NCBI GenBank assembly: GCA_030018585.1
Contig: JASEHZ010000001.1
Coordinates: forward strand, 9,484 to 73,483
DNA length: 64,000 nt
Source: Patescibacteria group bacterium
Lineage (GTDB): Bacteria > Patescibacteriota > Minisyncoccia > UBA6257 > GWB1-50-10
Direction: 5' to 3'
A program made the position numbers and the translations under genes. The notes beneath the pieces were generated by a model, which was not told the DNA's origin, made no database searches, and saw only the letters and a program-made list of their open reading frames with translations. This document shows, piece after piece, positions 4,435 through 63,702 of this stretch; position 1 is the first letter of the stretch; each line of letters opens with the position of its first letter.

Positions 4435-4779
4435 GTGCCGGTTGTAACCAGTATAAAAATAACACCGACCTATTCATATGAGTTGCCCTTTACCCTATCC
4501 CGCTGGTTAGATATTTTAATTGGACCAATATATTCTTGTATTTTCATATTTATTTTTACTAACAAGAAAATACAAAAAAATGAGGATTTAACTTTTAGTC
4601 TGGCTGTTGGTCTGGCTCTTGGTCTGGCTTTTGGTCTGGTTCTTGGTCTGGCTGTTGGTCTGGTTCTTGGTCTGGCTTTTGGTCTGACTGCTGGTCTGAC
4701 TGCTGGTCTGGCTACTCTAATAAAATTAATTTTTAGCAGCCGGTTTAAAAACTGGCTGTTGGCTGAAGATAAAAAATAA
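4435..4779 (+). CDS. Small membrane protein with glycine-zipper (GLxxGLxxGL...) repeat
   Basis: 114-aa ORF; N-terminal TM segment; middle encoded by ~10 tandem 12-nt repeats. Confidence 0.45.
   Translation: MPVVTSIKITPTYSYELPFTLSRWLDILIGPIYSCIFIFIFTNKKIQKNEDLTFSLAVGLALGLAFGLVLGLAVGLVLGLAFGLTAGLTAGLATLIKLIFSSRFKNWLLAEDKK
4597..4716 (+). repeat. Tandem 12-nt repeat (GGTCTGGCTNNT)x~10 inside CDS
   Basis: Direct reading: ggtctggctgtt ggtctggctctt ggtctggctttt ggtctggttctt ... ggtctgactgct ggtctggctact. Confidence 0.8.
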
Positions 4780-14014: not shown

Positions 14015-14611
14015 ATTTCTTCTTTCCAAAGCACTATTTAATGTTTCTTCGTCAGCAAATTCAATTTCGCCGCCCGTAGGAATGCCGCGGCCCAGACGGG
14101 TTATTTTTTCTGCAAGATTTTTAAATTCCTGACGAATTATATCAGCGGTAAAATCGCCAAAAGTATTTGGATTTAAAGCAATAATAATTTCTTTTATTTT
14201 TCCGTTCGATTCTTTTATAATCCTGTCTTTCAAATGTTTTAACCGTAATTTTTGAATGGTTTCCAATGCGCCCCGTTCGTTTAATTCACCAAGGATTAAA
14301 TAATGGCCTTTGAAATGTCCGGTTTTTTCAATTGAGATTAAATCGGTTTCTTTTTCAACAATAGCGATAACAGCGCAGTCACGGCTTTTGTTTGAACAGA
14401 TTTCACAAATTTTTTCGCTGCTATTTTTAAGAAAAAAGCATCGTTCGCACCGGTCCAATTCTTTTAAGTTGCTTAGCGATGCAATAAGATTATCAAGGCT
14501 TGCGCGATCAAGGTTGAGTAGATAAAAAACAAGACGAGTAACAAGTCGAGGTCCCAAAGATGGGAGTTTTGAAAAATTATCAATAAATTTTTGAATTGAT
14601 TCTGGGATCAT
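14012..14611 (-). CDS. recR: Recombination protein RecR
   Basis: N-terminal HhH (LPSLGPRLVTRLVFYLL), C4 zinc finger CERCFF...CEICSN, Toprim region; 199 aa. Confidence 0.9.
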   Translation of the reverse strand: MIPESIQKFIDNFSKLPSLGPRLVTRLVFYLLNLDRASLDNLIASLSNLKELDRCERCFFLKNSSEKICEICSNKSRDCAVIAIVEKETDLISIEKTGHFKGHYLILGELNERGALETIQKLRLKHLKDRIIKESNGKIKEIIIALNPNTFGDFTADIIRQEFKNLAEKITRLGRGIPTGGEIEFADEETLNSALERRN

Positions 14612-14735
14612 CCCGTTAGAAACAGGTCGTCTAGGGCGACCGTAAATAAAGCGGCCTTTTATTTAATATTTATGTTTTTTGGCAAATGCTTAATATTCAT
14701 AGATTTCATAATTTGGTTGCTTCTAACGGGATCAT
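14612..14735 (-). repeat. ATG-flanked palindromic leader element, copy 1 (dnaB-recR intergenic)
   Basis: Minus-strand reading ATGATCCCGTTAGAAGCAACC...CCTGTTTCTAACGGG then ATG of recR; shares internal TATGAATATTAAGCATTTnCCAAAAAACATAAATAT with copy 3. Confidence 0.7.
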
Positions 14736-51640: not shown

Positions 51641-51778
51641 TATTTTTCCTTGTACGAATATTTATTATTTAAAGATTCTGCATTTAGTATGAACTTTCAA
51701 AATTATGTTTGTTTGTCAAGTTTTTATTTTTTATTTATTGCACGCTTCACTCGATAAGCTATAATTAAATTAATTGTT

Positions 51779-51902
51779 ATGAATCCCGTTAGAGACAACA
51801 ATGCCATGATTTTCAAAACAAATCTTGTTATATATCAGAAAAAGTCGATAGCAGTTAAAACGGCTGATTTACGGTCGCCTTGGGCGACCTGTCTCTAACG
51901 GG
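51779..51902 (+). repeat. ATG-flanked palindromic leader element, copy 4
   Basis: ATGAATCCCGTTAGAGACAAC...inner hairpin GGTCGCC-TTG-GGCGACC-TGTCTCTAACGGG then ATG of eno; arms show compensatory AAGC/GCTT to AGAC/GTCT change. Confidence 0.7.
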
Positions 51903-53102
51903 ATGAAAATAAAAGACATAATTTTACGTGAGGTTTTTGATTCTCGAGGTGAATCTGTGTTGGAAGTGGGCATCGAAGATTATTTGGGGCATAAATTTAT
52001 TGCTCAAAATCCTTATGGTGCAAGCCGGGGCAGTAATGAAGCCTCAGTTTTTTCCTGTGAGCGGGCAAAAAAGATTTTAAATGGCGGCTTGGCGAGAGAA
52101 ATTATTAAAAAAAATTTTGGATCAGTTAGAAATTTTGATCATATTCTTTTTAATTTTGACGGCACGGCTCGGAAAGAAAAAATTGGCGGGAATTTAGCGC
52201 TCGGTCTTTCGGTTGCATTTGCGCGTGGGCTGGCTTATGAACGGGGGCAATTATTATGGGAGCTTTTAAACGAGGAATTTTTTTTCAGTCGGCCCTTTCG
52301 CAGTTATCCTTTAATTTTTTCTAATTTAATTAATGGCGGTGCTCACGCTGATAATAATCTTGATTTTCAGGAATATATAGTGATTGTGAAAATCACCGGT
52401 TCGGTTAAAGATACTATAGAAAAACTTATTGATTTTTATAAAAAATTAGGCATTCTTCTTAAGAAAAGGTTTAGCAAAAAAGAATTGGTTATTGGCGATG
52501 AAGGCGGTTATTCTTTGATGTTTGAAAATAATTTTGAACCAATTGATATTTTAGGCAATCTTATTGAAAAAGAGCGGCTTATGAGTAAGTATGGTTTGGG
52601 ATTGGATGCGGCGGCTTCGAATTTTTATAGCAACAGCCGTTACTCTTTTGAGGGCAAAAGGATTTCTAAAAAAGATCTGTACGAAAAATACCTTGAATAT
52701 TTTAGAAAATCCAAGTTTTTGTTTTCAATTGAAGATCCTTTTAATGAACGCGACATTCAGGATTTTAAAAATTTGAGCATTGAACTTTCTGACAAACTTA
52801 TAATTGGTGACGATTTGACGACCACCAACTCGGCAGCGATTTTGGCGCTTGCGAAGGAAAAAGCAATTAACGGTGTTATTATCAAACCTAATCAAATTGG
52901 CTCCGTGACGGAAAGCTGCGAAGCAATAAAAGTTGCTCATGAAAATGGCGTAAAATGTATTATTTCTCACCGATCAGGAGAAACCGAAGATAATTTTATT
53001 ATTAATCTTGCTCGAGCAAGCGGCGCCGAAGGCGTAAAAATTGGCGCTCCAGTTCGCGAAAGACTTTCTAAATTCAACGAGCTAATAAGAACTTATAATT
53101 AA
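51903..53102 (+). CDS. eno: Enolase (divergent, short)
   Basis: N-terminal DSRGESVLEV pattern and SHRSGETED signature; 399 aa. Confidence 0.75.
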   Translation: MKIKDIILREVFDSRGESVLEVGIEDYLGHKFIAQNPYGASRGSNEASVFSCERAKKILNGGLAREIIKKNFGSVRNFDHILFNFDGTARKEKIGGNLALGLSVAFARGLAYERGQLLWELLNEEFFFSRPFRSYPLIFSNLINGGAHADNNLDFQEYIVIVKITGSVKDTIEKLIDFYKKLGILLKKRFSKKELVIGDEGGYSLMFENNFEPIDILGNLIEKERLMSKYGLGLDAAASNFYSNSRYSFEGKRISKKDLYEKYLEYFRKSKFLFSIEDPFNERDIQDFKNLSIELSDKLIIGDDLTTTNSAAILALAKEKAINGVIIKPNQIGSVTESCEAIKVAHENGVKCIISHRSGETEDNFIINLARASGAEGVKIGAPVRERLSKFNELIRTYN

Positions 53103-59600: not shown

Positions 59601-59712
59601 CTTTTACAAGAAGTGCCAAAGAGATTTAGAGATTTAGATTTCCGTTATTTTTAAAGAGAAAAAATATAATCTTTAAAGAGAAAAATATATAATAACGCAA
59701 AATTGCTAACAA

Positions 59713-59730
59713 GGTTCAATCAATTGAACC
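59713..59730. promoter_or_regulatory. Palindrome GGTTCAAT-CA-ATTGAACC (copy 1 of 3), 20 nt upstream of regulator gene
   Basis: 8-bp arms, 2-nt spacer; same site recurs at 60151-60168 and 60490-60507. Confidence 0.55.
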
Positions 59731-59749
59731 GTTATGGTATTGTCGAAAT

Positions 59750-60148
59750 ATGGTAAGAATCACTAAACGGGGTATCACTCAAGAGTTAAATAAACAACTT
59801 GTTGATTTTTTATTGAGCGAAATAAAAAAGATTAAGACGAGTGATGGTTTGGATAAATTTATGAGCCGATTATTGACTTCCGAAGAACAGATAATGTTCA
59901 AGAAGCGTCTGGCAATTAATCTTTTCCTTGGTGAGAAAAAAAGAGTCAGAGATATCAGAAAAATTTTAGATGTTTCTAAGGCAACTATTGGTTTTGTCAG
60001 GCGAGGCTTGGTGAATCTTCCTAAAAAAGAGACAAGGACAGAGAAAATAATTGCCAAAAAAGATTCCAAAAAATCAGCACACAAATCTCGATATCCATAT
60101 CCGACTTACAAAGGTAGGGGTCGGTGGCGGTTTCTCGACCGCTTTTAG
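59750..60148 (+). CDS. TrpR-like YerC/YecD-family DNA-binding protein
   Basis: 132 aa; RLAINLFLGEKKRVRDIRKILDVSKATIGFVRRGL HTH region characteristic of YerC/YecD. Confidence 0.55.
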   Translation: MVRITKRGITQELNKQLVDFLLSEIKKIKTSDGLDKFMSRLLTSEEQIMFKKRLAINLFLGEKKRVRDIRKILDVSKATIGFVRRGLVNLPKKETRTEKIIAKKDSKKSAHKSRYPYPTYKGRGRWRFLDRF

Positions 60149-60150
60149 AA

Positions 60151-60168
60151 GGTTCAATTGATTGAACC
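60151..60168. promoter_or_regulatory. Palindrome GGTTCAAT-TG-ATTGAACC (copy 2), abutting the regulator stop codon
   Basis: Exact 18-mer. Confidence 0.55.
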
Positions 60169-60489
60169 TTGGAGGCGTTGTCTGAATATTTAATATTAGA
60201 TGTATATGAATAGATATAAAAGTAGATACAAAAACGGATATATGCGAATAGAACGTAAATAGATATTATTTGGATAAATGCGAGTGCTTTAATAGATATG
60301 AAAATGGATGAACAGGGGGGTGAACAGATATAAGTAGATGTTATTCAAGCGAGTATGTACAAGCAGGTACGTGTGAATATATGTTTTCTACAAAAATTGA
60401 AACGGGAAATTATAGAGTGTTATAATCTAGTAAAGCTCCGTGGTTTTTTTGATTTTTTTGACTGGCTGGGAATTCAGAAAGAAATGAAA

Positions 60490-60507
60490 GGTTCAATTGA
60501 TTGAACC
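60490..60507. promoter_or_regulatory. Palindrome GGTTCAAT-TG-ATTGAACC (copy 3), ~80 nt upstream of surface-protein gene 60590
   Basis: Exact 18-mer. Confidence 0.55.
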
Positions 60508-60589
60508 TCGGGGATATTTGATAAATATACGAGGTTTTTGAAATTTTTAAAAAAATTCCTTCAGAGTTTTTAAAACCATTTTAATATTA

Positions 60590-62731
60590 ATGAAAAAAAC
60601 ACTAAAATTCATATTAATTTTTTCACTGGTTTTGGGATGGGTTTTTTCTGGCTGGCCAAAGATTTGGCAAAATCCGAGAATTCCGCCGGAAATTCAAATA
60701 GCACAAGCAGCAACACTTGAATATGTTGGAGGGGCATCTGGCACGGGAACCGGAGCAACATATAGCGTTTCTCTTACCGGCCTTACAGGTGGCATTGGAA
60801 GTTCTGCGGCGGCAGGTGACCTTGTCATCGTTGTTACCGGATGGGCGAGTGCAGCCGATGGTAATCCTGGCGTTACCACACCCACTGGCTATACCGAAGT
60901 GTATGACCTTTACAAAAGTGACACTAGAGATGTTAATATGAGTGTCAACTGGAAGATTATGGGAGGAACTCCGGATACTTCTGTTACGGTAAGCGGCCAC
61001 AACAACGCGGCAAACGGAGGCGCGACTGTAGTTCATGTCTGGCGCGGAGTTGACTCGACAACGCCGATGGACGTTACTCCTCCTACTGGTGTCACCGCTG
61101 CCAACGCCTCGTCGCCAGATAGTCCGAGCATCACGCCAGTTACGAGCGGCGCGTATGTTTTATCCGTTGGTATGGGAACAGGGGATACCACACCACTGAC
61201 TAAAACTGCGCCGACTGGCTATGGCAATGCGCTATCTGTTGCGGGCAACGGCTCCACCATGTCGATTATCGCGAATATCGCGTCTAAGGTATGGAGCGGC
61301 AGCGGAGCGGAAGACCCTGCGGCATGGACCGGCGGCGAAACAAGCACTTCAGACTCGTGGGCCGCCGGCACTTTAGCAATACGGCCAGCGCCGTCTTTTA
61401 CCCAATCTGCTTACAGATTTTTTAATAATATAGATTCAACTGATGTTGGTTCAGTTTTGGCGAATCAAGATACGTCGGCAACGCTAAGTTCGAGTGGTGC
61501 TGAATTTCGTTTGCGTATGCTTTTACATATCGGCACAAGTCGGCTTGATGCTTCCGGCCAGCAATTCAAACTCCAGTTCGCCCAGATGTCCGGCACCTGT
61601 GATACGGTTTTTTCCGGCGAGTCATATGCTGATGTTACTGCGGCAACAGTTATTGCTTATAACAATAATACTACGCCGGCTGATGGCGATAATTTAACTG
61701 CCAATGCCAATGATCCGATTCACGGCGCAGATACTATTGTTAATCAGGATTATGAAGAATTAAATAATTTCACCAATTCTGTTGCGGCAATTCCTTCTGG
61801 TCAAGACGGTAAGTGGGATTTTTCTTTAAAGGACAATGGTGCTTCAGCAGAAACTGCTTATTGTTTTCGTGCAGTTTTATCGGACGGTACCTTATTTACT
61901 GCAGGTGGCGGTAGTTATAGCGTGGTTCCGGAAATTACTACGGCTTCGGCTAATTCAGCGCCAACAGTTTCTAATGTTGTTTTAAATAATTTGAACCCCA
62001 TTACTCTTACGCCGAACACCACAACTGCTGTTTTAGTTGTGGCGTCAACAACCGATTCTAACAACAATATTAGTTATGCTACTGGAACGATTTATCGGAC
62101 TGGCATTGGAGCAACCTGCGCGGCTGATAATTTAAATTGTTATCAGTTAGCAAGTTCAAGCTGCAGTTTTTCGGGCAGTACGAGTACTGTTACTTGTTCG
62201 GCTAATATCTGGTATTTTGCGCAAGCAACTGATTCTTCCTCTTCTTTTTCCGGCGACACCTGGTCAGGCAAGATTGCGGTTACTGACAGCGGCGGGCTTT
62301 CCGGCAGTTCTTCCACGGCGTCGCAGGTTGAGTTAAATACACTTCTTGCTATTGATGTTACGTCGGGAACAATTGATTACGGGACTTTAGTGCCGAATAC
62401 AAATACGGGTTCGACAAATCAAACTTCAACCGTAAAAAATGTTGGCAATTCTTCAACTACGCTTCAGCTTTCTGCTTCGCAGACATTAACTTCCGGTTCA
62501 AATTCAATTACCACAAGTTCTCAGCATTACGCAACTTCATCGTTTACTTTTGGCGGCAGTGAAGCGCAATTGAGCGATACGCCGACGACTGTAACAGGAT
62601 TTTCATTAACATCGCCCACAAGCACGAACGCGGTCTCAAGCATTGTTTATTGGGGCTTGAATGTCCCGGCTAGTAAGCCAACTGGCACTTATAGCGGGAT
62701 TAATGTTTTTACAGCGGTTTTTGTTCAGTAA
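60590..62731 (+). CDS. Giant Ser/Thr/Gly-rich surface protein (paralog A)
   Basis: 713 aa, N-terminal TM; C-terminal ~170 aa nearly identical to 62785 ORF. Confidence 0.45.
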   Translation: MKKTLKFILIFSLVLGWVFSGWPKIWQNPRIPPEIQIAQAATLEYVGGASGTGTGATYSVSLTGLTGGIGSSAAAGDLVIVVTGWASAADGNPGVTTPTGYTEVYDLYKSDTRDVNMSVNWKIMGGTPDTSVTVSGHNNAANGGATVVHVWRGVDSTTPMDVTPPTGVTAANASSPDSPSITPVTSGAYVLSVGMGTGDTTPLTKTAPTGYGNALSVAGNGSTMSIIANIASKVWSGSGAEDPAAWTGGETSTSDSWAAGTLAIRPAPSFTQSAYRFFNNIDSTDVGSVLANQDTSATLSSSGAEFRLRMLLHIGTSRLDASGQQFKLQFAQMSGTCDTVFSGESYADVTAATVIAYNNNTTPADGDNLTANANDPIHGADTIVNQDYEELNNFTNSVAAIPSGQDGKWDFSLKDNGASAETAYCFRAVLSDGTLFTAGGGSYSVVPEITTASANSAPTVSNVVLNNLNPITLTPNTTTAVLVVASTTDSNNNISYATGTIYRTGIGATCAADNLNCYQLASSSCSFSGSTSTVTCSANIWYFAQATDSSSSFSGDTWSGKIAVTDSGGLSGSSSTASQVELNTLLAIDVTSGTIDYGTLVPNTNTGSTNQTSTVKNVGNSSTTLQLSASQTLTSGSNSITTSSQHYATSSFTFGGSEAQLSDTPTTVTGFSLTSPTSTNAVSSIVYWGLNVPASKPTGTYSGINVFTAVFVQ

Positions 62732-62784: not shown

Positions 62785-63702
62785 ATGATAAAGACAATTT
62801 TGAGAATTTTTGGTGTTTTATTAATGACAGTTGCTGTTGGTGGTAGTTTGCTTTTAGTTTTACAAACCGTGATGGCGGTTAATATTTCAAGTTCAGTTAT
62901 TGTTGGCAATGCTGCGCCAACAGTTTCAGCTGTTTCAATAAATGGCGGTAATCCTATTACTTTAACTGCTAATGCGACAACTTCAGTGGTGGTTAATTTT
63001 ACTGTAACTGATAATAATGGCTGTTCCGATGTTTTTATGGGCGGTAATACCACAACCACTTCTTACCGGTCTGGTGTTGGCGGAAGTTGTACGGCTAGTA
63101 ATTTAAATTGTTATACCGTGACTTCCGTAACTAATAATTGTGCGGGCGGCAATAATGCTAATGCGACAGCGACTTTTGAAATTTATTATTTTGCTAATGC
63201 TACCGACGCCAGTTCTTCGTATTCGGCTCAAAATTGGCTGGCTCAAGTTTATGCCCGCGATGCTTCATCAGCAACCGGTACCGCTACTTCCACGGGCGTA
63301 GAATTAAATACTTTAACAGCCATTAATGTCACGACTTCTTCAATTAATTACGGCACTTTAGCGGCAGGCAGCAATACTGGCGCAACTAATCAAGTAGCAA
63401 CAAGTACTAATGCCGGCAATTCCTCAACCACACTTCAGCTTTCTTCTTCGCAAACTTTAACTTCCGGTTCTAATACGATTGCCACAAGTTCTCAGCATTA
63501 CGCGACTTCAACATTTAGTTTCGGCGGTAGTGAAGCGCAATTGAGCGGCACGCCGACGACTGTAACAGGATTTTCATTAACATCGCCCACAAGCACGAAC
63601 GCGGTAAGCCAGGCAGTATTTTGGGGTCTTGAAATCCCGGGCGGAACAGCAACCGGAACTTATAGCGGCGTTAATGTGTTTTCATCACTTTTCCAGCCGT
63701 AG
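62785..63702 (+). CDS. Ser/Thr-rich surface protein (paralog B, matches C-terminal half of 60590 ORF)
   Basis: 305 aa; shares AANSAPTVS..., NLNCY..., ELNTL.AI.VTS..I.YGTL and SQHYATS.F.FGGSEAQLS.TPTTVTGFSLTSPTSTNAVS blocks. Confidence 0.45.
   Translation: MIKTILRIFGVLLMTVAVGGSLLLVLQTVMAVNISSSVIVGNAAPTVSAVSINGGNPITLTANATTSVVVNFTVTDNNGCSDVFMGGNTTTTSYRSGVGGSCTASNLNCYTVTSVTNNCAGGNNANATATFEIYYFANATDASSSYSAQNWLAQVYARDASSATGTATSTGVELNTLTAINVTTSSINYGTLAAGSNTGATNQVATSTNAGNSSTTLQLSSSQTLTSGSNTIATSSQHYATSTFSFGGSEAQLSGTPTTVTGFSLTSPTSTNAVSQAVFWGLEIPGGTATGTYSGVNVFSSLFQP

Follow-up and report, generated by a model that had tools for sequence, protein, structure and literature searches.

We analysed a window of 64,000 nt, the whole stretch of DNA to which the coordinates below refer, from contig JASEHZ010000001.1 (GCA_030018585.1) of a Patescibacteria group bacterium. 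The sequence at 51779–51902, directly before the gene for enolase, is a copy of a ∼122-nt element that occurs four times in this window. Each copy has inverted arms of 15 nt (ATCCCGTTAGAAGCA / TGCTTCTAACGGGAT) and a GC-rich hairpin adjoining one of the arms. The arms make a terminal stem of 14–15 bp (ATCCCGTTAGARRY / RYYTCTAACGGGAT), called P1 here; the subterminal GC hairpin stays paired though its sequence varies between copies. The four copies are isolated, 5–26 kb apart, and located at the 5′ ends of housekeeping genes. All of them are preceded by ATGA(A) and end in ...CGGGAT+G, where the ATG is the start of an open reading frame (ORF): recR for copy 1, an unknown 619-aa ORF for copy 2, a gene for a VirD4/TraG-like ATPase for copy 3 and the enolase gene for copy 4. 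The parts of the copies and the adjoining genes are as follows.

14610–14732, minus strand: copy 1, standard orientation; arms 14718–14732 and 14610–14624 (AGAAGCA / TGTTTCT) with one G·T pair
14625–14641, minus strand: hairpin of copy 1, GGTCG-CCCTAGA-CGACC
20003–20007: left ATGAA of copy 2
20007–20128, minus strand: copy 2; arms 20007–20021 and 20114–20128 (AGAAGCA / TGCTTCT) with one C·A mismatch
20022–20038: hairpin of copy 2, GGATGCC-ATA-GGCATCC, beside the gene-distal arm
20127–21986, plus strand: ORF after copy 2; its ATG at 20127 is the end of copy 2
25109–25113, plus strand: left ATGAA of copy 3
25113–25240, plus strand: copy 3, standard orientation; arms 25113–25127 and 25226–25240 (AGAAGCA / TGCTTCT)
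25203–25225, plus strand: hairpin of copy 3, GGATGTGCTT-AAA-AAGCACATCC
25239–27110, plus strand: VirD4/TraG-like ATPase ORF; its ATG (25239) is the end of copy 3
51779–51783, plus strand: left target duplicate ATGAA of copy 4, the former start of the enolase gene; these 5 nt recur at 51903–51907
51783–51904, plus strand: copy 4 as a whole; arms ATCCCGTTAGAGACA / TGTCTCTAACGGGAT (AGAGACA/TGTCTCT)
51784–51902, plus strand: element proper of copy 4, TCCCGTTAGAGACA ... TGTCTCTAACGGG, 119 nt; in standard orientation (hairpin on the gene-proximal side)
51783–51796, plus strand: 5′ strand of P1 in copy 4, ATCCCGTTAGAGAC; its initial A derives from the target duplication
51873–51889, plus strand: subterminal hairpin of copy 4, GGTCGCC-TTG-GGCGACC, with the conserved ACG before it and T after it
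51891–51904, plus strand: 3′ strand of P1 in copy 4, GTCTCTAACGGGAT; it ends with the first two bases (A and T) of the enolase start codon
51903–51907, plus strand: right target duplicate ATGAA of copy 4
51903–53102, plus strand: enolase ORF (Pfam Enolase_N and Enolase_C); its ATG (51903–51905) abuts copy 4

Copy 1 is placed between the dnaB stop codon (the TGA of its left ATGA, 14735–14732) and the recR start codon (14611–14609); it shares with copy 3 a stretch of 88 nt that is 84% identical. With up to three mismatches allowed, the arm word had nine matches in the window versus 1.8 expected, a number reached in none of 100 shuffles. Fold z-scores of the four copies ranged from −4.4 to −9.3 relative to shuffled sequences. 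Copy 4 was matched by the covariance model of the family (R1, see below) with 86.7 bits (E = 4e-15). The interior of copy 2 is inverted relative to the downstream gene, and R1 fits the minus strand of this copy better (76.9 versus 35.1 bits). Exact-protein look-ups with the RecR and enolase of the window matched no record.

An earlier reading of the locus (hereafter the sequence-only reading) had described compensatory changes in the arms and inner hairpins, and these descriptions were confirmed. Copy 4 carries a double change that keeps the arms complementary (AGAGACA/TGTCTCT versus AGAAGCA/TGCTTCT in copies 2 and 3), while copy 1 keeps pairing by way of one G·T pair (AGAAGCA/TGTTTCT). The inner hairpins have different stems that nevertheless pair, GGTCG/CGACC in copy 1, GGATGTGCTT/AAGCACATCC in copy 3 and GGTCGCC/GGCGACC in copy 4, and all three have TTACGG before and TG-YY-TCT after. 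Two features had been missed: the inverted interior of copy 2, and the bracketing of the element by ATG(A)(A) together with its ending at an ORF start.

Distribution of the family

Genomes, one per species, were scanned with a pattern made of the outer arms only (ATCCCGTTAGA-N90-120-TCTAACGGGAT), in which the inner arm positions and the interior were left free. At least 119 loci matched; with the window included, the family has at least 135 copies in >100 genomes of Patescibacteria, also known as the Candidate Phyla Radiation (CPR). The copy counts given below refer to the matches listed. Nearly all loci belong to metagenome-assembled CPR genomes from many classes, among them Kaiser-, Wolfe-, Yanofsky-, Nomura-, Moran-, Levy- and Kerfeldbacteria. 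The 135 copies listed are 112–142 nt long. Some genomes hold near-identical copies (loci L049, L055 and L103), and tandem copies were seen in two loci (L047 and L010). Carriage of the element by phages was rejected, as a scan of 2.9 million viral contigs of IMG/VR produced no match.

The 122 proteins encoded downstream of the copies belong to many unrelated families, with no more than four members in the largest cluster. Their genes include recR, enolase, pheT, topA, typA, murG, rplQ, glyS, ileS, pilC and genes for glycosyltransferases and tRNA synthetases. In a comparison with Rfam 15 only tRNAs were found at gathering score; the best sub-threshold match had 18.9 bits versus a cut-off of 63, and a permissive search with E up to 10 added chance-level matches only. 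Literature searches on miniature inverted-repeat transposable elements, or MITEs, in CPR, on elements targeting start codons and on the arm words retrieved nothing relevant; the family looks undescribed.

Sister families were observed as well. One, ATCCCGTAGT...ACTACGGGAT, has altered arms and is wedged between two standard copies; another, ACCCCGTTAGA...TCTAACGGGGT, has C-G instead of T-A as its second arm pair and GGGGTG at the 3′ end. These families are located in L010 (6020–6157), L107 (3118–3383), L058 (3875–4165) and L143 (1339–1442); an ATGRA duplication is not clear in them.

Pairing and covariation

Pairs 12–14 of P1, free in the search, are A-T or G-C (or C-G/T-A) in near-equal numbers. 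Between 93 and 97% of them are Watson–Crick pairs, and the changes are transitions only. A local hairpin is found in ∼75 of 122 copies, typically with a 7-bp stem and a 3–4-nt loop (overall range 5–13 bp). It stands one base (T) before the 3′ arm, has ACG in front of it and occurs with at least a dozen unrelated stem sequences. Outside the arms and the ACG that precedes the hairpin, no consensus is seen in the interior columns of the alignment.

The consensus structure predicted by RNAalifold has exactly two helices, P1 and the hairpin, with double changes at 12 pairs. The covariance model R1 was built from the RNAalifold alignment, and 44 high-scoring copies were re-aligned with it. In this 44-copy alignment, 98.0% of cells were paired (86.2% in shuffled alignments) and 138 cells were changed on both sides (46 in shuffled alignments); none of 500 shuffles gave a value as high in either measure. 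When the partner was slid by 1–3 columns, pairing fell to 33–49%. The claim of the sequence-only reading that the changes have the pattern of a selected structure, for which a covariation check had been proposed, was upheld in this shuffle-based form of the check: covariation exceeded every shuffled and every slid control. That reading had named mere subfamily descent of the arm differences as a possible refutation. This was not borne out in the closest copies: among the 24 most similar copy pairs (interior at least 72% identical), 19 differences at arm pairs 12–14 were two-sided and one was one-sided.

The kind of pairing was informative too. Among non-Watson–Crick combinations in P1, read on the sense strand, G·T was seen 11 times and A·C 11–12 times; with mismatches of the hairpin and P1 pooled, the counts were 24 for G·T versus 15 for A·C (p = 0.2). 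An RNA helix under selection would favour G·U far over A·C, so the equal counts argue against a riboswitch or leader, and pairing of the RNA type expected from such a structure was not seen. The element has a feature typical of REPINs, namely an inverted doublet that folds into a long hairpin and shows compensatory changes. The word CGGGA, similar to the 3′ arm, occurs inside 17 of 62 copies versus 1.8 expected, while its complement never does; this word allows an alternative 5′ hairpin.

Consensus scans of copies 3 and 4 detected no plus-strand promoter inside or upstream of them and one minus-strand match upstream of copy 4. The subterminal hairpins of these two copies have no T-run after them; the sole terminator-like match was a 5-bp stem at 25180–25193, inside copy 3 on the minus strand.

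Target site and evidence for insertion

As many as 122 of the 135 copies (90%) end at the ATG with which an ORF of at least 50 aa begins; of the other copies, several belong to tandem arrays or are truncated by contig ends. In gene orientation, the flanking sequence is A-T-G-R / ATCCCG...CGGGAT / G-R-A (here and below, slashes within sites mark junctions), and in 103 of 107 copies the bases that follow the left ATG are the same as those following the right one. The duplication consists of the first 4–6 nt of the gene, usually five (ATGRA), and always starts at the A of ATG. Faithful duplication extends to rare targets, such as ATGCG / TCCCG...CGGG / ATGCG in L034 and ATGAG in L115. In copies where the fifth base of the gene is G, the left arm starts with G as well; hence the first ‘A’ of the arm is derived from the target, and the element proper is TCCCG...CGGG (TCCCGTTAGARRY ... 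RYYTCTAACGGG), a boundary deduced from filled and empty sites. As the first bases of the gene are duplicated on the far side of the element, the downstream ORF stays intact after insertion; the upstream stop codon, too, is intact at ATGA gene overlaps. The identity of arm positions 12–14 was considered as a guide for the fourth base of the target and rejected, since on inspection an ATGG flank was seen in at least seven of the eight variants of the arm.

For comparison with empty sites, 80 recR loci were fetched from metagenomes. At the recR junction ∼75 sites were empty versus two filled. The closest relatives (RecR 67–72% identical) have a plain overlap of the dnaB stop and recR start, ...ATGATYCC..., without the element. 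At the same dnaB/recR junction of a more distant relative (L139) there is a copy of a different hairpin subtype. A cleaner empty/filled pair is provided by a methyltransferase gene in two syntenic loci, L200 and L201. The filled site of L200 reads ggcATGAG / TCCCG...CGGG / ATGAGCTC, the empty site of L201 reads cccATGAGCGTC, and the duplication is 5 nt long. The full junction in L200 is ...tattttataggcATGAG / TCCCGTTAG...CTAACGGG / ATGAGCTCG, as compared with ...tattttatacccATGAGCGTC in L201; a third locus, L202, is also empty at this site.

The hairpin is gene-proximal in ∼90% of copies; with respect to the gene, ∼8% have the flipped orientation. The reading frame opened by the left ATG has its stop at a median of 17 codons, shows no conservation and stops early in 80 of 107 copies. 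A translated insert or leader peptide was rejected, because this frame never reads through in frame in addition to stopping early. Taken as a list, the features of MITEs found here are terminal inverted repeats, target duplication, presence/absence at orthologous sites, multiple copies, and short length without coding capacity.

Nature of the element

We consider it likely that the feature at 51779–51902 is a copy of a new non-coding, non-autonomous, palindromic family of mobile DNA, MITE- or REPIN-like and ∼112–142 nt long, that is specific to Patescibacteria (CPR). The terminal inverted repeats and two bases of the duplication together form the 14–15-bp P1, with an asymmetric hairpin (5–13 bp, with ACG before it) beside one arm. 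Pairing may be required during copying or integration, when an enzyme acting in trans would recognize a folded single strand or a cruciform, as has been proposed for REPINs. Every variant has arms that match each other and hairpin strands that match each other, which such a requirement would explain. Once inserted, copies would decay at about the neutral rate. Non-Watson–Crick combinations make up 6.6% per pair at P1 pairs 12–14 (∼3.3% per site), the left duplicate differs from the right one at 6.1% of sites (2.6% if grossly different flanks are set aside) and 15 of 122 copies have lost the left ATG. That size, position and flanks of the hairpin are constant speaks for a constraint on its shape. 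We infer that the structure is a property of a selfish element and not of a regulator tuned for each gene, and that pairing probably serves copying of the element rather than regulation of the individual genes. In REPINs, compensatory changes across the hairpin of a mobile DNA are common, which provides a precedent (PMC3116915). Of the possibilities offered in the sequence-only reading, a DNA cruciform used by a recombinase came closest to the evidence, given the terminal inverted repeats, target duplications and empty orthologous sites. If the element is transcribed, its stable predicted hairpin must pair the start codon's A and U, placing a 15-bp helix against the AUG, and side effects on mRNA processing or translation would be plausible to likely.

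Several observations weigh against a simple mobile element. The ∼1.2 Mb of flanking DNA (119 loci) yielded neither an autonomous partner nor a transposase that shares the ends of the element, nor did these loci contain a long element bounded by the arms or a recurrent DDE transposase. Unoccupied ATGRA words in the same loci, classified by crude gene calls, number 278 at predicted starts, ∼719 in intergenic regions and 3942 within genes; on these crude calls, target preference followed by purging predicts that 28–45% of copies would be at starts, versus at least 90% observed. Orientation toward the gene is biased 90:8, a bias that symmetric arms do not explain. For a selfish element it is unusual to have exact arms of 11 nt in CPR classes that diverged deeply; such arms could instead indicate a host factor or function that is conserved. 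The search itself required perfect outer arms, and the set of copies is therefore biased to young or intact ones.

A more specific proposal, which we put forward tentatively and consider unlikely, is that integration is mechanistically aimed at start codons. It would take up the junction exactly before the A of ATG, the fixed orientation and the arms identical throughout CPR; the hairpin might be read by a conserved host factor or a domesticated one, or might let ribosomes initiate or re-initiate across it in genomes poor in Shine–Dalgarno signals. In 39% of copies a same-strand ORF ends within 15 nt upstream, and in 19 copies the TGA of the left ATGA serves as its stop. The effect seen at start codons is thus not tied to transcription start sites, and as a general rule insertion at leaderless transcription starts was rejected. 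In control genes of these genomes a Shine–Dalgarno signal is almost absent, and before the left ATG there is only a weak enrichment of G, at 2–3 nt. The precision at start codons is thus not a Shine–Dalgarno effect, and a Shine–Dalgarno sequence bridged by the stem was rejected as well.

The same observations can be read in other ways. The sequence-only reading had proposed a structured RNA closed by P1, such as a riboswitch or processing signal. A cis-regulatory RNA of this sort (riboswitch, leader or processing signal), conserved by the host and with P1 gating the start codon, would agree with the pairing of the start codon A and U in P1, with the strong covariation and with the single orientation to the gene in 92% of copies, and the excess of internal CGGGA could be seen as forming a 5′ hairpin that frees the 3′ arm. 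Yet the downstream genes are unrelated, the interior has no conserved or ligand-binding core, some copies are flipped (copy 2 of the window included), orthologous sites are empty and targets duplicated, G·T is not commoner than A·C, and Rfam has no match. We regard such an RNA as extremely unlikely, and gene-specific regulation is largely refuted. An account that keeps the mobile origin is co-option by the host, either for RNase III processing or insulation, or to keep the upstream initiation or termination site near the real AUG, with coupling or initiation preserved in spite of the insertion; on this account only insertions at start codons persist. It is consistent with a CGGG / AUG junction that is exact in at least 90% of copies, with the close upstream ORFs and the 19 stops provided by the left ATGA, with the arms conserved across CPR classes, and with the near absence of Shine–Dalgarno signal, owing to which the context of the start site matters; Correia and ERIC transcripts are known to be processed by RNases. 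However, decay of the left ATG (15 of 122 copies) is about as fast as that of neutral positions next to it, the ORF it opens stops early in 80 of 107 copies and has no conserved length or stop, and P1 mismatches lack the wobble preference of RNA. Co-option appears unlikely.

A purely mechanical origin of the matched strands was considered next to these. The palindrome might be homogenized by template switching or arm regeneration, with double changes made in one step and no selection on pairing. Concerted changes in the nearest relatives (19 double versus one single), the equally low numbers of G·T and A·C intermediates, the nearly neutral decay after insertion and the restriction of pairs 12–14 to transitions all agree with this. 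But the hairpin keeps its position, its ∼7-bp size, its 3–4-nt loop and its ACG ... T flanks while its sequence changes fully, and homogenization alone leaves the phylum-wide constancy of the outer 11 nt unaccounted for; we judge it rather improbable. The mobile family with pairing required in copying is the interpretation that we prefer.

A Y1 transposase as a possible mobilizer

The sole enriched non-housekeeping gene near the elements codes for a Y1 protein of 200–260 aa, 65–81% identical among Patescibacteria. Of 119 loci, eight have a Y1_Tnp gene 0.5–5 kb from the element (Pfam E = 2e-11; the best NCBIfam match, REP_Tyr_transpos, is below cut-off). The family has >7000 members, a conserved synteny beside gyrA and a domesticated look. 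The element could accordingly be imagined as a REPIN-type one mobilized by a domesticated Y1 (HUH) transposase (RAYT), with single-stranded integration 3′ of the bottom-strand CAT. The order on the bottom strand, CAT, a 13-nt linker and the hairpin, resembles the left end of IS200/IS605 and gives one exact junction and a fixed orientation; an internal CGGGA could supply the second hairpin. On the other side, the Y1 genes are flanked by hairpins of their own that differ from the arms and hairpin of the element, Y1-centred loci show no enrichment for the element (one of three has it), and at least one contig carries two Y1 paralogues, which makes the apparent enrichment uncertain. Known HUH transposition proceeds without target duplication, whereas a 5-nt duplication is shown here, and the element has true terminal inverted repeats. 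This scenario seems to us quite improbable, and the Y1 protein, judged from sequence, is a weak candidate for the mobilizer.

The gene order around Y1 in CPR is methyltransferase, Y1, gyrA. Y1 genes are located in L200 (10001–10660), L201 (10001–10660) and L202 (6100–6765), as well as in L006, L013, L029, L064, L085, L094, L101 and L119. A short hairpin (e.g. TTCAAGGTTCGACCTTGAA, with flip/flop loops) is present ∼40 nt upstream of the gene and right after its stop codon, and recurs inside the ORF. The CPR Y1 family looks like a domesticated REP/RAYT system, undescribed for CPR.

Other features of the window and of the loci

TATAAT-like boxes are found only 6–13 nt before the ATG, in the window (25084–25090 and 51759–51765) and in recR loci L143 and L153–L159 (∼15–20 nt before the recR ATG). 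The boxes and the near-absent Shine–Dalgarno signal suggest that many genes in these CPR genomes may be leaderless or independent of Shine–Dalgarno sequences. In L158 and L159 a small ORF, similar by eye to GIY-YIG nucleases, is located between dnaB and recR, ∼60–330 nt upstream of recR, and is followed by a conserved GGGGTGCTCA...TAGATAA motif.

A 22-nt palindrome, AAGGTTCAATTGATTGAACCTT, is present three times at 59711–60528 of the window, every time with a similar tail of ∼19 nt after it. The three copies bracket a basic ORF of 132 aa (59750–60148) and an apparently non-coding stretch of 340 nt, and look like operator sites. A tandem array of about ten 12-nt units (GGTCTGGCTnTT) occupies 4568–4735. 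A direct repeat of ∼535 nt (62092–62626 and 63063–63597; 77–79% identity, 971 nt apart) is located at and after the end of a 713-aa ORF (60590–62731) and is probably a tandem paralogous domain or gene.

Implications

Clean compensatory covariation beside a start codon can be the product of a selfish DNA palindrome instead of a regulatory RNA. For a bacterial MITE, the phylum-wide identity of the arms, the junction exact to the start codon, the 5-nt duplication that preserves the ORF and the strong orientation rule are unusual. CPR genomes are tiny and dense, and the element has found, or is guided to, one survivable position for a 120-nt insertion. It bears both on the tolerance of mobile DNA and on translation start in CPR, with a 15-bp helix touching the AUG. 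In practice, the sequence tag ATCCCGTTAGA ... TCTAACGGGATG marks true start codons in CPR metagenome-assembled genomes. If integration were indeed aimed at start codons, the family would stand for target selection of a new kind, and possibly for start sites of new architecture, beyond a tolerated MITE.

Comparison with known systems

Like the attC sites of integrons, which are recombination sites of 57–141 nt conserved in structure rather than sequence, the element has GTT/AAC core boxes at the base of its stem. The attC core is RYYYAAC ... GTTRRRY, while the element has the reversed order, GTTAGAR ... YTCTAAC, on both strands. An attC nature was rejected given the wrong order of the core, the lack of cassette arrays and of an integrase, and the location at 5′ ends of housekeeping genes. 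The gap of T4 gene 60 and the ‘byp’ inserts of yeast mitochondria are also structured inserts between identical codons (AUG ... AUG in our case) with a mobile-like spread; however, bypass inserts are 27–55 nt long and reside within coding sequence, and the left AUG of the element decays freely.

With PATEs, which derive from IS200/IS605, the element shares a subterminal hairpin at a fixed distance, a fixed short target word, a strong orientation rule and, plausibly, folding as a single strand. PATEs differ in having no terminal inverted repeats or target duplication and in carrying hairpins at both ends. An element of the IS200/IS605 (HUH) type was rejected, as the duplication and inverted repeats are present and most copies have one local hairpin.

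The likeness to REPINs extends to non-coding palindromic repeats of ∼100 nt in which the ends are conserved, the spacer varies and the hairpin is long, to compensatory changes in that hairpin (PMC3116915), to lineage-wide persistence and to tandem clusters; the genomes concerned also have a RAYT-like Y1 gene. Unlike the element, REPINs occur anywhere in extragenic space, without target duplication or a junction at the start codon, and the element, unlike REPINs, has a local hairpin at one arm only. A RAYT gene is flanked by the same REP hairpin as its REPINs, whereas the hairpins at Y1 genes differ in sequence from those of the element in the same locus; in this point the element departs from a REPIN/RAYT system proper.

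The Correia (NEMIS) elements of Neisseria, the enterobacterial ERIC and the pneumococcal RUP resemble the element in their length of 100–150 nt, inverted repeats, target duplication and occurrence in both orientations. These MITEs, too, are inserted between genes of operons, and their inverted repeats fold into a long RNA hairpin; the RNA hairpins of Correia and ERIC are cut by RNases. Correia, ERIC and RUP duplicate TA and are found at many intergenic positions within one genus, while the element duplicates ATGRA at the start codon and combines 11-nt arms that are identical throughout the superphylum with a highly variable interior.

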